From the NCBI GenBank assembly GCA_964351025.1, contig CAYGLV010000002.1, forward strand, positions 20,454 through 84,453: 64,000 nt of DNA, read 5' to 3'. Each line of letters starts with the position of its first letter. The stretch's first letter is position 1. A program made the translations under genes and the position numbers. The stretch comes from an uncultured Gaiellales bacterium (GTDB lineage Bacteria > Actinomycetota > Thermoleophilia > Gaiellales > Gaiellaceae). This document shows, one piece after another, positions 5,800-43,446 of the stretch. Below the pieces are notes generated by a model. It searched no databases. It had not been told where the DNA came from and worked only from the letters and a program-made list of their open reading frames with translations.

Positions 5800-6500
5800 T
5801 GCTCGAGGCACGCGACCTGCACGCGGGCTACGGCGGCTCCGAGGTGCTCCACGGGCTCAGCCTGAGCCTCGGCGACGGCGAGTGCGTCGCCGTCCTGGGA
5901 CCAAACGGCCACGGCAAGACGACTTTCCTGCGAGCGGTCTCGGGGCTCGTCCCGCTCACGGCCGGCACCGTCGAGCTCGACGGCAAGCTGATCTCGAACC
6001 GGCGACCCGACGAGATCGCGGCGGCCGGGGTGGTGCACATCCCGCAGGGCGACCTGCTGTTCCCGGAGATGAGCGTCTACGAGAACCTCGTCATGGGCGC
6101 CTACGTGAAGCGAGCCTGGCGCGAGCGTCAGCAGAAGCTGGATCACGCCTACGAGCTCTTCCCGTGGCTGTCGGAACGCAAGGACCAGCTCGCCCGCAGC
6201 CTGTCGGGCGGGGAGCGCCGGATGCTCGCCATCGCCCGCGGCCTCATGGCCGACGCGCGCGCGCTGCTCATCGACGAGCCCTCGCTCGGCCTCGCGCCCG
6301 TGATCATCGAGCAGATCTACGCTGCGATTCGCGGCATCAAGGAGAACGGGCTGCCGATCCTGCTCGCCGACGAGAACGCGAACCACCTCCAAGGCCTCGC
6401 CGACCGCGTCTATCTGCTGGAGACCGGCGTGTTCGTCCGCGAGGCACCCACCGACCGCCTGCTCGCCGATGAGGCGCTGCTGGCCGCGTACCTGGGGTAG
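5799..6500 (+). CDS. ABC transporter ATP-binding protein (LivF-like)
   Basis: GPNGHGKTT, LSGGERRML, LLIDEPSLGLAP. Its ATG overlaps the upstream TGA. Confidence 0.85.
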   Translation: MLEARDLHAGYGGSEVLHGLSLSLGDGECVAVLGPNGHGKTTFLRAVSGLVPLTAGTVELDGKLISNRRPDEIAAAGVVHIPQGDLLFPEMSVYENLVMGAYVKRAWRERQQKLDHAYELFPWLSERKDQLARSLSGGERRMLAIARGLMADARALLIDEPSLGLAPVIIEQIYAAIRGIKENGLPILLADENANHLQGLADRVYLLETGVFVREAPTDRLLADEALLAAYLG

Positions 6501-8502: not shown

Positions 8503-8879
8503 CTGTCCTCGATCAGCAGGACGGCGTCCACCTCGATCTCGAAGCCGGGCAGGTCGGACTGGATCGTCGTCCGCGCTGGCAGCGGCTCCGGGAAGAACTC
8601 GCGGTAGACGTCGTTCATGGTCGGAAAGTCCTTCATGTCACGCAGGTAGACGCCCACGCGCACGGCGTCCGCGAGCGAGCCTCCCGCCGCCTCGGCAACG
8701 GCTGCGAGGTTGTGGAACGTCTGTCGTGCCTCCTCCTCGAACGATCCGTCCACCCTCTCGCCCGACGGTCTGAAGGGCCCCTGACCGGCGAGGAAGACGA
8801 GGTTGCCCGCCGCGATCGCCTGCGAGTAAGCGCCGCCGGGAGGCGGGGCGGACTGCGTTTCGATGGGACGCTTCGGCAT
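8499..8879 (-). CDS. RidA/YjgF family reactive-intermediate (enamine/imine) deaminase
   Basis: GAYSQAIAAGNLVFLAGQ, VGVYLRDM and EIEVDAVL motifs. Confidence 0.85.
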   Translation of the reverse strand: MPKRPIETQSAPPPGGAYSQAIAAGNLVFLAGQGPFRPSGERVDGSFEEEARQTFHNLAAVAEAAGGSLADAVRVGVYLRDMKDFPTMNDVYREFFPEPLPARTTIQSDLPGFEIEVDAVLLIEDS

Positions 8880-9819: not shown

Positions 9820-10668
9820 TTGATCGTGCTCGTCGATCTCCACACACATCTCGGCGAGGCCCCCGAGCACATCAGCGAGCGGTTCGCGGCCGAGGCGCGG
9901 GCGGCGTGGGGAGCCGAGCTGAGGCTCGGGAGGACGCTCGACGAGCACTACGAGGCGACGCGCGGCGCCGACCGCGTCGTCGCGCTGGGGTTCTGCGCGC
10001 CGGCGTCCGGCTGGGTCGTCCCGAACGACTACGTGTCCGATTACGTCGCCCGCGACCCCGAGCGGCTGATCGGTTTCGGCTCGGTTGACCCGAACGACCC
10101 GGGCGCGCCGGAGGAGCTCGAGCGCATGCGGCAGGACCTCGGCTTGCGCGGCTGCAAGCTCGCTCCGATCTACCAGGACGCCGACCCGCTCGGCGAGGGG
10201 TTCCTGCGCGTGTGGGAGCGGCTCGAGCGGCTCGAGTTGCCGGCGCTCGTCCACCAGGGCACGACCTTCGTCCGGAACGGGCCGCTCCTGCACGCGCGGC
10301 CGGTGCTGCTCGACGAGGTCGCGCGCCGCTTTCCGCGGCTCGTGATCGTGATCGCCCACATGGGTCACCCGTGGGTGGAGGAGACCGTCGCCGTCATCCG
10401 CAAGCACCCGAACGTCTACGCGGACGTGTCGGCGCTCCATCCGCGGCCGTGGCAGCTCTACCAGGCGCTCGTGTGTGCCGTTGAGTACCGCGCCGAGCAC
10501 AAGCTGCTGTTCGGCTCCGACTGGCCATTCTTCACCGCCGACGAGACGATTCTCGGGCTGCGCGCGGTCAACGACGTCGTGGCCGGCACCGGGCTGCCGC
10601 GTATACCGGAGCAGGTCATCGAGGAGATCGTGCACCGCTCGTCGCTCGGGCTTCTCGGCCTGGATTAG
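9820..10668 (+). CDS. amidohydrolase-2 (PF04909-like) metal-dependent TIM-barrel hydrolase
   Basis: VDLHTHLG, IAHMGHPW, LFGSDWPF. The start may be TTG 9820 or GTG 9826. Confidence 0.75.
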   Translation: MIVLVDLHTHLGEAPEHISERFAAEARAAWGAELRLGRTLDEHYEATRGADRVVALGFCAPASGWVVPNDYVSDYVARDPERLIGFGSVDPNDPGAPEELERMRQDLGLRGCKLAPIYQDADPLGEGFLRVWERLERLELPALVHQGTTFVRNGPLLHARPVLLDEVARRFPRLVIVIAHMGHPWVEETVAVIRKHPNVYADVSALHPRPWQLYQALVCAVEYRAEHKLLFGSDWPFFTADETILGLRAVNDVVAGTGLPRIPEQVIEEIVHRSSLGLLGLD

Positions 10669-10679
10669 AGTCGCGCGGG

Positions 10680-11573
10680 CTACTGGGCGGGCTGCGGCGC
10701 GCCGGCCTCGGTCCACGCGGCCCAGACGGCGGCGACGCGGCGCTCGTCCTCCGCGTCGAGCGCTGCAAGCGGTGGCCGCGGGTCGCCGGCCGGAAAGCCG
10801 GCGAGCGCCATCGCGGCGCGGACGGCCGGCACGTTCTTCGCGGCGTCGTCCTCGGCCCGCAGCTGCTCGAACTCGCGCGCGAGCGCGCGCAGCTCGAGCG
10901 CTCGCGCGACGTCGTCCTCCCGGAGTGCCGCCTCCATCGCCACCGAGAGCCCCGGTGCCGCGTTGACGAGGCCCGACGTGAACCCGCGCGCGCCGAGCAG
11001 GTGGAAGAAGGGCGCCCAGAGCTCGGCCGTGCCGCAGATCCAGAGCGCGCCCGGCGCCGCCGCCTGTGAGCGCTCGAAACCCTGGAGATCGTTGACGGCG
11101 TACTTCACTCCGAGCACCGAGCCGTCCTGCGCGAGCGCGACGACCAGCTCGTCGGGGACGCGGTGGCTGCGCTTGTAGAGGAAGGCGTTGCCGCCGGCGG
11201 CGGCGGCGATCCGGCGATAGTACTCCTCGAGTCCGCGCCGGCCGACGTGCGTGTGCGCGGGATGGTGCACGAGCAACCCGTCTGCCCCCGCGTCGAGCAC
11301 GGCCGCGGTCAGCGCGAGCGCGTCGGTCAGCGGGCCTCCGACGCCGGCGAAGACGAGTGCGTCCGGCGCCGCCTCGCGCGTCGCACGGGTCACCGCGACG
11401 ACCTCCTCGGCCGTCAGGGACGAGAACTCGCCGGTGTTCCCGGCGGGAACGAGGCGCTCGACTCCGTTTGCGGCGAGGAAGGACACGTGTCTGCGGACGG
11501 CTTCGGTGTCGACGCCTCCGTCGGCAGCGAACGGCGTCACCGTTGTGGCCCAGAGGCCCATAAGATCTGGCAT
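10680..11573 (-). CDS. dihydrodipicolinate synthase (DapA) family lyase, paralogue 2
   Basis: WATTVTPF...VDTEAVRRHVSFLAANGVERLVPAGNTGEFSSLTAEE. Confidence 0.8.
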   Translation of the reverse strand: MPDLMGLWATTVTPFAADGGVDTEAVRRHVSFLAANGVERLVPAGNTGEFSSLTAEEVVAVTRATREAAPDALVFAGVGGPLTDALALTAAVLDAGADGLLVHHPAHTHVGRRGLEEYYRRIAAAAGGNAFLYKRSHRVPDELVVALAQDGSVLGVKYAVNDLQGFERSQAAAPGALWICGTAELWAPFFHLLGARGFTSGLVNAAPGLSVAMEAALREDDVARALELRALAREFEQLRAEDDAAKNVPAVRAAMALAGFPAGDPRPPLAALDAEDERRVAAVWAAWTEAGAPQPAQ

Positions 11574-15871: not shown

Positions 15872-15897
15872 AAAAGCCCCACCGGGGCGGGGCTTTT
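15872..15897 (-). terminator. Rho-independent-type terminator hairpin just 3' of rnpB
   Basis: AAAAGCCCC...GGGGCTTTT inverted repeat. On the minus strand the stem is followed by UUUUC. Confidence 0.6.
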
Positions 15898-15900
15898 CCG

Positions 15901-16224
<324 letters not shown>

Positions 16225-19620: not shown

Positions 19621-20580
19621 CTAGCGAGTCGGCTCGTCCGGCTTGACCTTCAGCCCCTCCACCAGGCCGAGCTCCTCCTCGACGCTTTGCGTCGGGGGCG
19701 CACCGAGGAAGCGGAGCCGGAGCGACACGACCACGAGCAGGAGCAGGATCGTCAGGATCGAGACGAGCGTCGTCGCTGTGCCGAGCGCGTAGAGGTCGGG
19801 TCGGATCGCCGCCGTGAACGTCAGTCCGGCGATTTGCAGCGGCAGGGTCTGCGTCTCGGCGCCGCCGATCAGGAGCAACGTGCGGTCGTAGTCGTTCCAG
19901 GCCAGGGTGAAGCCGAACAGGAAGCAGCCGAAGAGGCCCGTCCAGACGAGCGGGAGCGTCACCTCCCGGAACGTCCGCAGCTGGTTCGCGCCGAGATCGC
20001 GGGCGGCCTCCTCGATGTGCTCGTCGTAGCGGTTCCAGACGGCCAGCATGACCAGGAACCCGAACGGGATGCCCCAGATCGCGTTCGTCCCGAGCGCCGT
20101 CTTCCAGAGCGAGGTCGGCTCGTCGATGAAGCGCCAGAAGAGCTGCGTCCCGAGCGCGAGCAGGAAGCCCGGCGTCATCAGCGCCAGCATGATCACGTAG
20201 AAGGCGACGCCGTCGCTGCGGAACCGGCGCCGGAACGCCATCGAGAGCGTGAAGGCGATGAACGAGACGACGAGGCCGGCCGCGAGGCTGAGCCACAGCG
20301 ACTGGATGCCGGCAGACCGGATCTCGTTCGCGTGCGAGCCTGGCATGTCGGCGTTGAAGAGCGACTCCCACCAGCGGATGCTGATCGGCCCCTTGAACGG
20401 GAACGTGAGCGAGCCGTAGAGCCCCTGCAAGGAGAGCACGCCCATCAGTGCCATCGGCAGGTGCAGGAAGACGAGGAAGAGCGTGAAGTACGCCCCGAGC
20501 ACCCATTTCGACCAATCCCTCCGGTGATGCTCGGCGTGGCGCGGGGTGTCCTGCGGAGCGGTGGTGTCGACGGCGCTCAC
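19621..20580 (-). CDS. ABC transporter permease (PotC-like)
   Basis: EEAARDLGANQLRTFREVTLP EAA loop. Polytopic. Confidence 0.8.
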   Translation of the reverse strand: MSAVDTTAPQDTPRHAEHHRRDWSKWVLGAYFTLFLVFLHLPMALMGVLSLQGLYGSLTFPFKGPISIRWWESLFNADMPGSHANEIRSAGIQSLWLSLAAGLVVSFIAFTLSMAFRRRFRSDGVAFYVIMLALMTPGFLLALGTQLFWRFIDEPTSLWKTALGTNAIWGIPFGFLVMLAVWNRYDEHIEEAARDLGANQLRTFREVTLPLVWTGLFGCFLFGFTLAWNDYDRTLLLIGGAETQTLPLQIAGLTFTAAIRPDLYALGTATTLVSILTILLLLVVVSLRLRFLGAPPTQSVEEELGLVEGLKVKPDEPTR

Positions 20581-40570: not shown

Positions 40571-41449
40571 TCAGTCTAGGGACATCTCGCTGCCGTCCCG
40601 GAGGAACGTGAAGACCTCCGTGTGGTCGCTGCCGGGCCGGTCGGCCTCCAGCGCGTCCCACAGTGCGGAGACGGTGGCGCCGATCGTGCGCGGAGTCCCC
40701 GCGGCGGCCACCGCCTCGGAGAACAGGCGCACGTCCTTGGCCATCAGGTGGGTGGCGAAGCCCGAGTCGAACGTGCCGGTCAGCACCCTGTTCACGTACT
40801 TGTCCGACGACGCGTGGCTGCGTCCGGTCGAGACGTTCACGACGTCGAGAATCGTCTTCAGCTCGAGCCCCTGAGACAGGCCGAACAGCACGGCCTCGCC
40901 GGTGGCGGCCGTCGCCGTCGCCGACAGGAAGTTATTGAGCAGCTTCAGGGCCTGGCCCTGCCCCGCCTCCGTGCCGACGTGAAAGACGTGCTTCGCGATC
41001 GCTGCGAGCGCGGGGCGGTTCGACTCCAGCAGCTCGGCCGGGCCGGCCCACATGATCGAGATCGTCCCGTCTATCGCGCCGCTCCGCCCGCCGGAGACCG
41101 GAGCGTCGACGTAGGTCAGGCCCGCGCTGTGGGCGCGGTCGCAGGCAGTGCGCGCGGCCTCGATCCCGATGGTCGACAGATCGACGACCGCGCGCGTGAC
41201 ACGCCCGGGCGCCGCGCCGATCTCCTCCAGCACGTCCAACACGACCGGCCCGTCGGGGAGGCTGAGGAAGACCGTCTCGGCCGCCGCGGCGACGGCGGCG
41301 GTGGAGCTCGCGACGCGCGCTCCGGCCGGCGCCCGGGCGGCCGTGCCGGCCTTGTCGAAGACGACGAGGTCCACGCCCGAGCGAGCGAGGTTCGCCGCCA
41401 TCGGCCCGCCCATGTTGCCCAGGCCGACGAAGCCGTACGCCGCCGTCAT
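40571..41449 (-). CDS. NAD(P)-dependent beta-hydroxyacid dehydrogenase (3-hydroxyisobutyrate dehydrogenase family)
   Basis: GFVGLGNMGGPMAANL, DAPVSGG, KLLNNFL. Confidence 0.85.
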   Translation of the reverse strand: MTAAYGFVGLGNMGGPMAANLARSGVDLVVFDKAGTAARAPAGARVASSTAAVAAAAETVFLSLPDGPVVLDVLEEIGAAPGRVTRAVVDLSTIGIEAARTACDRAHSAGLTYVDAPVSGGRSGAIDGTISIMWAGPAELLESNRPALAAIAKHVFHVGTEAGQGQALKLLNNFLSATATAATGEAVLFGLSQGLELKTILDVVNVSTGRSHASSDKYVNRVLTGTFDSGFATHLMAKDVRLFSEAVAAAGTPRTIGATVSALWDALEADRPGSDHTEVFTFLRDGSEMSLD

Positions 41450-41841
41450 GTCGCTCCCCCGGGTTCGATTCCCTGCTCGTCCAGCACCTCGCGTGCGAGG
41501 CGAAACGCCTCGACCCCCGCCGGTATCCCGCAGTAGACCGTGATCTGCAGCAGTACCTCCTTCAGCTCGTCGAGCGTGCAGCCGTTGGTCAGCGCGCCGC
41601 GAAAGTGGAGCTTGAATTCGTGCGGCCGGTTCAGCGCGGAGAGCATGCCGAGATTCAGCATGCTGCGCGTCTTCCGCTCCAGCACGCCGCGGGCCCAGGT
41701 TCCGCCCCAGCAGAACTCGGTCGTCAGCTCCTGGAGCTCGCGGTTGAAGCTGTCAGCGGCGGCGAGGGCCTTGTCGACGTACTCCGCTCCCAAGACCTCG
41801 CGCCTCACCGTCAGCCCCGCTTCGAAGCGTTCCCTGGACAT
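41446..41841 (-). CDS. carboxymuconolactone decarboxylase (CMD/AhpD-fold) family protein
   Basis: FCWGGTWAR..L..KTRSMLNLGMLSALNRPHEFKLHFRGALTNGCT..E..EVLLQITVYCGIPAG. Confidence 0.85.
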   Translation of the reverse strand: MSRERFEAGLTVRREVLGAEYVDKALAAADSFNRELQELTTEFCWGGTWARGVLERKTRSMLNLGMLSALNRPHEFKLHFRGALTNGCTLDELKEVLLQITVYCGIPAGVEAFRLAREVLDEQGIEPGGAT

Positions 41842-41892: not shown

Positions 41893-42510
41893 TCACTCTC
41901 CCGCGGGAGCATCCATGAGCCCCAGCTGCGCGAAGGCCTGCTCGAAGATCGCGTCGGGCTGGGCGCCCAGCACGATCAGGCGCCGGTCGAGCAGGAACGC
42001 GGGGATGGCATTGATCCCGATCGTGTTGGCCTGGGCGGTCGCCTGCGCGATCTGCTCCGCATGCAGGTCGCCGCTGATCGAGGCTTCGGCGCCCTCGAGC
42101 CCGAGCTCCGCGGCGAGCGTGCGCAGGACGTCCGGGTCACCGATGTTCAGTGCCTCCTCCCAGTACGCCTGCATGAGCCGGTCGTGGGTGAGGGCGTGCT
42201 TCCCCTGGGCTCGCGCCAGCTCGGTCAGGCGGAGCGCCGCGTGGGAGTTCGGCACGACGTCGGGCGGCGGGTTGTAGACGAGGTCGTCCCGTTCGAACGC
42301 TCGCTCCAGATTCAGGTGGAAGTCCGCTCCGTAGCGCGCAATCAGCTCGGTGCGGGGGATGCCCTTCGGCGGGTACTCGGGGTGCAGGTCGAAGGGCAGC
42401 CACTCGATCTCGGCGCCGAACCGGCGCTCGAGCCGCTCGGCCGTACGCTGGCCGATGCGGCAGAAGGGTCAGATGTAGTCCGACCAGATCAGGATCGCGT
42501 GGTCTGCCAC
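41893..42510 (-). CDS. DsbA/FrnE-like thiol:disulfide oxidoreductase with an in-frame TGA (42469-42471) at the first Cys of the CxxC motif; candidate selenoprotein (U-P-F-C), otherwise a single-hit pseudogene
   Basis: The minus strand from GTG 42510 reads VADHAILIWSDYI-TGA-PFCRIGQRTAERLERRFGAEIEWLPFDLHPEYPPKG... It continues in frame, with no other stop, into the track ORF 41893..42255 (NAIPAFLLDRRLIVLGAQ). Confidence 0.6.
42432..42461 (-). other. SECIS-like stem-loop starting 8 nt 3' of the in-frame UGA
   Basis: The RNA is GCCGC-A-UCGGCC-[AGCGUAC]-GGCCGA-GCGGC: 11 bp with one bulged A and a 7-nt loop containing GU. The loop begins about 19 nt after the UGA. Confidence 0.45.
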
Positions 42511-42519
42511 AGGCGCAGA

Positions 42520-43446
42520 CTAGCGAGGCCGCCCGGAGGCCTCGAGGGCCTTGACGAGCGCGGTGACGGTCTCGTTCACCGGGGCAGCGACCCCCACGCT
42601 CCGCGCAACCCGTGGAATCGCGCCGTTGATCACGTCGATCTCGCAGCGACGCCTGGCCCTCAGATCGAGGAGGAGCGACGGGCGGGCGTGCGGGATCCGG
42701 AGACCGAACGCGCGGGCGTACTCGACGGGGTCGTCGAAGGAGAGGTCGATCCGGAGCGCGCGGGCGACGTCGTAGGCCTCGACGGCGCATTGCGAGGCGA
42801 CCGCCCAGGCATGCGGATCGGCGAGCACCTCGCCGATCGTCCGGTCGAGCACGGCGCACGTTCCGCTGAAGCACACGTTGCAGAGCAGCTTCTCCCAGAC
42901 GAGCGGGCCGACATCGTCGTAGGTCTTGACGTTGAAACCCGCTGCGCGCCAGACCGCGGCGACGCGCTCGAGCCGCACGGAGGAGGGTCCCTGGCGCTCG
43001 CCGAGGCGCACGAGCTCCATTCCCTCGTGGTGGACGTGCCCGGGTGCGACGACCGAGGCTCCGAAACCGCCTGCGACGCCGATCACGACCCGGTCGGGCC
43101 CGAAGATCTCGGCGACCGTGTCGGCGCTGCCCAGCCCGTTCTGGATCGGAAGCACGACGGTCTCGGCGCCGGCGAGCGAGAGGGCGGCGACGGAGGCGGC
43201 GCGCACGTCCATGGCCTTGGTCGAGACGACGATCAGGTCGACCTCGCCGACGTCTTCGGCCCGGGTCGTCGCCTTGATGCGAACGGTCCTGTCGCCGCTC
43301 GCTCCTTCGACACGGAGGCCGCGCTCGCGAATCGCCGCGACGTGCGCCTCCCATGTGTCGACGGCCCAGACCTCGTTGCCCGCGTCGCCCAGCAGGGCGG
43401 CGTAGACCGAGCCCATGGCGCCGGCACCGACAACGGCGATCCTCAT
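42520..43446 (-). CDS. 2-dehydropantoate 2-reductase (ApbA/PanE) family oxidoreductase
   Basis: MRIAVVGAGAMGSVYAALL, VSTKA, NGLG, EKLL.N motifs. ATG at 43446. Confidence 0.85.
   Translation of the reverse strand: MRIAVVGAGAMGSVYAALLGDAGNEVWAVDTWEAHVAAIRERGLRVEGASGDRTVRIKATTRAEDVGEVDLIVVSTKAMDVRAASVAALSLAGAETVVLPIQNGLGSADTVAEIFGPDRVVIGVAGGFGASVVAPGHVHHEGMELVRLGERQGPSSVRLERVAAVWRAAGFNVKTYDDVGPLVWEKLLCNVCFSGTCAVLDRTIGEVLADPHAWAVASQCAVEAYDVARALRIDLSFDDPVEYARAFGLRIPHARPSLLLDLRARRRCEIDVINGAIPRVARSVGVAAPVNETVTALVKALEASGRPR

Follow-up and report, generated by a model that had tools for sequence, protein, structure and literature searches.

The 64,000-nucleotide stretch of DNA considered here, referred to as the window, comes from an uncultured Gaiellales bacterium and contains a gene for a DsbA/FrnE-like protein (41893..42510, minus strand) which is very probably a genuine selenoprotein gene, with selenocysteine (Sec) encoded by UGA at the position of the first active-site Cys. 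All the features of this gene lie on the minus strand. From the GTG at 42510 to the TGA at 41895..41893 there is a single open frame of 205 codons, whose sole internal stop is the TGA at 42471..42469. The translated N-terminus is V-A-D-H-A-I-L-I-W-S-D-Y-I-[TGA]-P-F-C-R-I-G, with the in-frame UGA, the proposed Sec codon and the U of U-P-F-C, as codon 14. Codon 17, a UGC at 42460..42462, encodes the resolving Cys of the UxxC motif, which is the only Cys residue of the protein. In the alignment of the relatives around this UGC (alignment A1), T16 and G17 do not vary, and the conservation of C18 is at least 90%. Gene callers give only a 120-residue fragment (41893..42255 in the list of open reading frames), which lacks the active site and is the product recorded in five assemblies. 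An earlier reading of the sequence by eye (the original prediction) had proposed Sec at this TGA, had translated by hand the 85 codons upstream of the fragment and found them to be in its frame with no other stop, and had argued that the only stop replaces the N-terminal catalytic Cys. The proposal of Sec is supported; the other statements stand, as do the coordinates that it gave for the GTG, the TGA, the fragment and the hairpin discussed below.

The frame offers one canonical start before the TGA, the GTG (42508..42510). It is the first that can be used after the upstream gene's in-frame TAG (42522..42520), which it follows at a distance of nine nucleotides; the homologous position is occupied by ATG or GTG in many relatives. 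On this frame reading, the true stop of the gene is the TGA at 41893..41895. Among the ordinary stops of the window TGA is also the most frequent: of the 46 long open reading frames that passed a filter on GC content at third codon positions, 26 end in it. Given that TGA is an ordinary stop here, and that it also ends the DsbA-like gene itself, UGA has not been reassigned genome-wide, and any recoding must be specific to the site.

With Cys set at the TGA, the protein matches the Pfam DSBA family PF01323 over profile positions 2-189 of 191, with E=3.1e-29 and 102.5 bits (cut-off 25.6). Its best relative of solved structure is FrnE of Deinococcus radiodurans (drFrnE; DR_0659; 5CNW and related entries), which aligns with residues 7-197 at E=2.3e-19. 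The drFrnE block IWSDIACPWCYIG aligns with IWSDYI[U]PFCRIG of the window protein, and the TGA thereby falls on the first Cys of the FrnE CPWC. The best relatives are FrnE and SCO1869, and not E. coli DsbA. As judged from these alignments, the window protein belongs to the DsbA family and is of the FrnE type, and the matches to Pfam and to FrnE are enough to establish its fold. The conserved β1 strand (HAILIWSD) has no more than 4-5 residues before it, which, read from the sequence and the FrnE alignment, appears to leave no room for a signal peptide, and the protein is probably cytoplasmic.

The TGA is widely conserved. Relatives were collected by a scan of one genome per species, which gave 80 loci, all of them from metagenome-assembled genomes (MAGs) of Gaiellales/Thermoleophilia-type Actinomycetota. 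One locus is cut by a contig end; the other 79 are informative, and of these 64 have TGA at the Sec column and 15 have TGC or TGT. Cys is also found at this column in the proteins P0013, P0025, P0043 and P0118. There is thus an alternation of Sec and Cys at the first CxxC column. Identity with the window protein among the TGA-type genes lies between 80% and 43%; these genes retain the pattern WSDY[IL]-TGA-P[FYW]C and occupy many differing gene neighbourhoods. One of them, in L006, comes from the complete Gaiellaceae chromosome OY969104.1. In the alignment, the UGA is always followed by C. For the window gene itself, five of five independent assemblies have the TGA, among them two strain variants with base differences close by; the window corresponds to the 66-kb contig k141_1203861 of the ENA metagenome assembly ERZ27247837. 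The original prediction had allowed for an assembly error and for close relatives carrying TGC with no hairpin; what is found is a TGA shared by all five assemblies, and a TGA together with a hairpin selected at the nucleotide level in 64 of the 79 loci.

A blind scan led to the same family. It covered 10,152 in-frame TGAs, with a filter on codon-position GC, in the loci and the window (about 1.4 Mb in total), and the DsbA-like family was the dominant cluster conserved on both sides of the TGA (59 loci). The only other such cluster was a candidate from four loci with Cys-type DsbA genes, described below. Two of the Cys-type genes (in L033, TGT at 10040, and L066, TGT at 8575) are nested among Sec-type genes in a neighbour-joining tree. 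In both, the TGT is one mutation from TGA, and the extra stability of the hairpin has gone. These two genes look like natural reversions from Sec to Cys. L077 (plus strand, about 6100..6200, TGA at 6140) carries a second, fragmentary copy of the N-terminus, VSPLSVWIWSDYI-TGA-PFC, which diverges right after PFC and is probably what is left of a pseudogene, next to the intact copy at 10025. L014 (plus strand, about 10000..10600) keeps the TGA, which is followed within about 20 codons by frameshifts, indicating either a pseudogene or long-read indel errors.

Downstream of the UGA there is a hairpin resembling a selenocysteine insertion sequence (SECIS) element, at 42432..42461. Its predicted minimum free energy (MFE) structure, GCCGC-A-UCGGCC-[AGCGUAC]-GGCCGA-GCGGC, has a 5-bp lower stem, a bulged A, a 6-bp upper stem and a 7-nucleotide loop, AGCGUAC. 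It starts at the eighth nucleotide past the UGA, after a 7-nucleotide spacer, with the stem beginning within the codon of the resolving Cys, and the loop starts 19 nucleotides past the UGA. The model for bacterial SECIS (bSECIS) elements requires a loop of 3-9 nucleotides, a stem of 4-16 bp, a G in the first two loop positions, a spacing of 16-37 nucleotides and an MFE of -7.5 kcal/mol or below (PMC13188914). The window hairpin satisfies every one of these constraints, with its 7-nucleotide loop, G at loop position 2 and 19-nucleotide spacing, and both the start and the spacing are as the original prediction had put them.

When the sequences are folded one by one, all the TGA-type genes form a hairpin that starts about 10 nucleotides from the U of the UGA. 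The loop starts 18-21 nucleotides past the UGA in 59 of the 61 unique TGA-type sequences, the loops being 3-8 nucleotides long, and in 43 of the 61 MFE folds there is a G among the first two loop nucleotides. The 15 Cys-type homologues have no consistent structure at this position. A control by synonymous recoding, in which the protein sequence was kept, synonymous codons were redrawn and the region was refolded, separates the two types clearly. Sec-type hairpin regions have a mean MFE of -19.5 kcal/mol against -12.5 kcal/mol after recoding (p=8e-11), whereas the Cys-type regions give -9.0 against -10.4 kcal/mol; the two types differ with a Mann-Whitney p=2e-9. The hairpin is under nucleotide-level selection only where the TGA is present.

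The pairing is also maintained through changes in sequence. The lower stem covaries, being GCCGC/GCGGC in the group of the window and GCUAC/GUGGC in others; pair 20-43 is AU in 22 sequences, GU in 17 and GC in 14, and at pair 21-42 there are 34 sequences with CG and 6 with GC. These changes entail different amino acids (R...ER in place of Y...TW), so that it is the protein sequence that bends to keep the pairing. A second, smaller hairpin (42410..42431, with the core GCGCCG-GUU-CGGCGC at 42427..42413) is predicted in the window and in most of the Sec-type relatives. It too is modestly more stable than its recoded versions in Sec-type genes (-10.7 against -8.1 kcal/mol, p=2e-8), a difference that is not significant in the Cys-type genes. 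Its loop is 47 nucleotides from the UGA, beyond the 16-37 nucleotide range. It is possibly an accessory element, and one possibility is that the two hairpins together make up a two-hairpin variant of the SECIS.

The machinery for Sec insertion was sought in the lineage by means of the SelA motif GDKLLGGPQ[AG]G, back-translated for high GC and used to scan metagenome contigs; this gave 120 loci. About 14 of these form one SelA clade, with 72-85% mutual identity, and rank highest in tetranucleotide similarity to the Gaiellales loci (r=0.955-0.988). One SelA of this clade was searched against the protein database, and the only names returned were "L-seryl-tRNA(Sec) selenium transferase" from a Gaiellaceae bacterium or an Actinomycetota bacterium, the best match being 96% identical. 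On the contigs that encode these proteins, which include MAG contigs of 1.2-2.5 Mb and Gaiellaceae MAGs from NCBI, selA is followed by selB, mostly at a distance of one or a few small genes. The selB products contain GTP_EFTU and the SelB-specific domains PF25461 and PF09107. After selB comes a tRNA with a UCA anticodon, which matches the Rfam tRNA-Sec model RF01852 with 67-69 bits (gathering threshold 47).

The arrangement of these sel loci varies in detail. The insert between selA and selB (L211 8001..11655; also L212, L213, L214-L216, L218 and L221-L223) usually consists of one to three genes, for an O-methyltransferase (PF00891), a GNAT acetyltransferase or a DUF402 protein, and in several of the Gaiellaceae loci the tRNA-Sec directly adjoins selB on its downstream side. 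Several loci have upstream genes for a MoaD/MoaE fusion, an M50 peptidase and a LOG-family protein, the others having part of this set or a different one.

Further genes with an in-frame TGA at classical Sec positions are present in Gaiellaceae MAGs that also carry a Sec-type DsbA gene. One, in L018 (19464..20187, plus strand, TGA at 19747), encodes a deiodinase-like protein with FGSYT-U-PPF (PF00837 E=2.9e-30, NF038285 E=6e-57), and a hairpin follows its TGA. Another, in L031 (minus strand, TGA at 10770), encodes an AhpC/TSA peroxiredoxin with DWSST-U-TDEL at the peroxidatic position (PF00578 E=3.1e-26) and has a strong hairpin, with loop CGUGA, about 21 nucleotides downstream of the TGA. The four-locus candidate of the blind scan is of a different kind. 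It comes from Thermoleophilia loci with a Cys-type DsbA gene (L060 at 13810, L061 at 15320, L064 at 13820 and L065 at 15579, all on the minus strand) and is a predicted membrane protein, ...GVSGAWSP-[TGA]-GFSMVETLTPA.C..., conserved on both sides of the TGA and with hairpins after it. It has no match in Pfam or NCBIfam, and may be an undescribed selenoprotein.

From these observations we infer that Sec, rather than another residue, is inserted at UGA14, and that the candidate hairpin binds SelB. UGA14 would be read by SelB-GTP carrying Sec-tRNA(Sec) and tethered to the intragenic hairpin, and the second UGA, 190 codons further on and with no such hairpin, would terminate. Because the hairpin is inside the coding sequence, codons 17-26 would be under a dual constraint, from the protein and from the RNA. 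In the redox motif U-P-F-C, Sec14 would be the N-terminal, attacking nucleophile, and Cys17 would resolve via a selenenylsulfide. The product would then cycle between the selenolate/thiol and the selenenylsulfide and, by analogy with FrnE, may act as a thiol-disulfide reductase or isomerase.

Several observations weigh against this interpretation. The fold of the 66-nucleotide region in the window is by itself only modestly unusual (z=-1.86, with 11 of 200 dinucleotide shuffles as stable), and the significance of the hairpin therefore comes from the comparative data and not from the window fold alone. In 18 of the 61 MFE folds neither of the first two loop nucleotides is a G, and in the window the loop G precedes C and not the commoner G or U. 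RNAalifold did not recover the hairpin from an ungapped alignment of the 61 sequences, and when the register of the window is imposed on all of them, 81% of the cells are paired against 79.5% in shuffles. This weak single-register consensus arises because subfamilies pair the upper stem in two registers, one with a bulged A and the other with a 1x1 mismatch, and the fixed-register test was replaced by the per-sequence folds and the synonymous-recoding control. In that control, the sequences are phylogenetically related and the p-values therefore overstate their independence, although the effect remains clear in its direction and in its size. As regards the machinery, searches with E. coli SelA, SelB and SelD (tblastn) found no match in the 64-kb window or in 85 DsbA-gene loci, scans for tRNAs in these sequences gave no tRNA-Sec, and in the window no tRNA gene of any kind, and selD was not found in the selA-selB loci examined. 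No genome was found with both a Sec-type DsbA gene and selA, selB and selC, which places the link at the level of the family; the nearest pairing is between sibling MAGs of one project, JBJMJE having the Sec-type DsbA gene and JBJMJT, JBJMJU and JBJMJW having selA. The original prediction had looked to the rest of the genome for selA, selB, selD and tRNA-Sec. At the level of relatives, selA, selB and tRNA-Sec are present in Gaiellaceae MAGs, whose loci examined gave no selD, and none of the four was found within the window or the DsbA-gene loci.

The strongest competitor to Sec is that UGA14 is recoded to some other residue, which we consider quite unlikely. It could come about through a tRNA(Cys) resembling tRNA-Sec, delivered by SelB and inserting Cys, or through near-cognate read-through (Trp, Cys or Arg) at UGA-C, stimulated by the hairpin. 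UGA-C is a leaky stop context. The invariable C after the UGA agrees with this explanation, as does the failure to find selD in the loci examined. However, the spacing and loop features of the hairpin are those of the SelB-dependent SECIS type, and within Gaiellaceae selA, the gene for the maker of Sec-tRNA(Sec), is conserved beside selB and a canonical UCA tRNA-Sec. Trp or Arg in place of the nucleophile would inactivate a CxxC enzyme. Cys, for its part, is available through the codons TGC and TGT, one mutation away; this change has occurred twice, and both times the stability of the hairpin was lost. Nor does recoding to another residue sit well with the further genes of the lineage that have TGA at classical Sec sites.

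A still less probable explanation is that the truncated protein is the real product, starting downstream of the TGA, and that the N-terminus is decaying or pseudogenised. The products of 120-191 residues given by gene callers fit this proposal, and no Shine-Dalgarno sequence is evident on inspection before the GTG. Yet the residues WSDY[IL] before the TGA and P[FYW]C after it are kept across 64 species, at 43-80% identity and in unrelated contexts, many relatives have a start codon at the homologous position, and a decaying remnant would not retain a hairpin selected at the nucleotide level. Moreover, the first start after the TGA, the GTG at 42255, would produce a protein that has dropped β1, the entire active site and about 40% of the domain. 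Least likely of all is that the TGA arose through faulty sequencing or assembly, or that a normal Cys-type gene has recently acquired a nonsense mutation. Errors and mutations do occur at this site, as shown by the frameshifts just after the TGA in L014 and by a GGA in one metagenome contig, but a TGA that is identical in five independent assemblies, two strain variants among them, and present in 64 species effectively refutes this explanation.

The way in which these genes are stored in databases follows from the internal TGA. Most of the closest database homologues are truncated at the N-terminus, with lengths of 150-191 residues, or 120 for P0078, and the statement in the original prediction that gene callers would cut the gene short is borne out by these products of 120-191 residues. 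Others have the TGA translated as Trp: P0001 and P0002 (JGI; L089 31..642) have Trp at the Sec position, and as the codon in the DNA of P0001 is TGA, the call must have been made with a genetic code in which TGA is Trp. P0102 (L090 615..1223, from a metagenome contig) has a true GGA (Gly) at the Sec codon and an intact hairpin, which points to an error in the reads or to a mutation of recent date. There is no NCBIfam selenoprotein model that covers the gene, the only match being NF041057 with 25 bits against a cut-off of 190, and automated pipelines will therefore continue to call these genes wrongly. As matters stand, the window gene and several dozen species-level orthologues are stored truncated and without their active site, and in a few records the Sec position is given as Trp.

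The gene upstream in the window (42520..43446, minus strand) encodes a 2-dehydropantoate 2-reductase of the ApbA/PanE family (NCBIfam TIGR00745 E=6e-72) and ends 9 nucleotides before the GTG. Downstream (41446..41841, minus strand) is a CMD-family gene (carboxymuconolactone decarboxylase/PcaC-like), which matches TIGR02425 with E=1.5e-41, below the cut-off of that model, and has the Pfam family CMD on record. The ApbA/PanE neighbourhood is kept in only 10 of the closest loci, and the CMD gene is adjacent in only 6 of them. Gene neighbourhood was considered as a clue to function and dropped, the order ApbA, DsbA-like, CMD being confined to the 10 or so closest loci. Elsewhere in the window there is a bacterial RNase P RNA of class A (15896..16222, minus strand; RF00010, 217 bits).

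DsbA-like selenoproteins with a UxxC motif (COG2761/PF01323) were first reported in 2005, as 9 sequences from the Sargasso Sea metagenome (PMC1088965), and then in Anaeromyxobacter, Desulfovibrio and Desulfotomaculum (PMC1794560). By 2016 there were 45 such genes in 41 organisms (PMC5029168), and a 2026 review lists the group as "DsbA-like protein form 1" (PMC13188914); Asgard archaea are among the hosts found later. Replacement of Cys by Sec in thioredoxin-fold CxxC proteins, which the original prediction took to be an established pattern, is therefore indeed established, and neither a new mechanism nor a new protein family is revealed here. The literature searched contained nothing relevant that connects selenoproteins with Gaiellales or Thermoleophilia. 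Within Gaiellales, the near-universal Sec state of the DsbA-like gene appears to be unreported, and its lineage-wide distribution there, together with the systematic truncation in databases, may be new.

With moderate confidence, we propose more broadly that the Sec form of the DsbA/FrnE-like gene is ancestral and near-universal in Gaiellales, and is accompanied by a conserved selA-selB-selC cluster and by a wider selenoproteome that has been overlooked, comprising the deiodinase-like protein, the peroxiredoxin and possibly the membrane protein. The distribution of the gene suggests that Gaiellales, which are common soil actinobacteria, use selenium routinely. If this is true, a group that is among the most abundant of the soil Actinomycetota would be broadly selenium-dependent and would have been systematically missed by annotation, whether through truncation or through reading TGA as Trp. 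The family also adds a well-supported case of exchange between Sec and Cys in a thioredoxin-fold enzyme, with the two reversions from Sec to Cys as a natural control.

Among characterised proteins, drFrnE, a cytoplasmic disulfide reductase/isomerase of the DsbA family (PMC8945050), is a close counterpart. Its active-site block, IWSD-x-x-C-P-[WF]-C, aligns directly with the window protein, which, like drFrnE (PMC8945050), appears to have no N-terminal extension that would hold a signal peptide. The differences are that Sec stands where drFrnE has Cys22 (numbering of PMC8945050), that the window protein has 205 residues and drFrnE 260, and that drFrnE's CxxxxC tail at the C-terminus is lacking. 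With no such tail and no further Cys, the window protein cannot be regenerated in the way proposed for drFrnE, through the tail, and its reductant must be a different one. The FrnE proteins of S. roseofulvus and D. maricopensis likewise have no C-terminal CxxxxC (PMC8945050), and its absence in the window protein does not therefore exclude membership of the FrnE group. The periplasmic DsbA of the E. coli type, which has a signal peptide, the motif CPHC and DsbB as its partner, is more distant: the window protein has no N-terminal extension, its motif is UPFC, and there is no DsbB-like neighbour in the recorded context of its gene.

In its recoding signal, the window gene resembles the SelB-dependent type known from E. 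coli fdhF and the bSECIS model. The hairpin is within the open reading frame and directly downstream of the UGA, with a spacing of 19 nucleotides, a loop of 7 nucleotides whose second is G, a 6-bp upper stem that stands on a bulge, and an MFE far below -7.5 kcal/mol, and selA, selB and tRNA-Sec are found within Gaiellaceae. It has no similarity to the E. coli element in primary sequence, as expected from the diversity of bSECIS elements, and differs from it in having a second conserved hairpin. As a protein, its counterpart is the DsbA-like form 1 selenoprotein, whose published members were compared by description only. Both have a PF01323 domain, a UxxC motif with Sec at the position of the N-terminal Cys, widespread Cys homologues, and a SECIS-like hairpin 3' of the UGA with a small loop containing G. 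The window gene is set apart from that group by its host lineage, the Gaiellales/Thermoleophilia of the Actinomycetota, and by Sec being, in about 64 species, the majority state of the gene and not a sporadic one.

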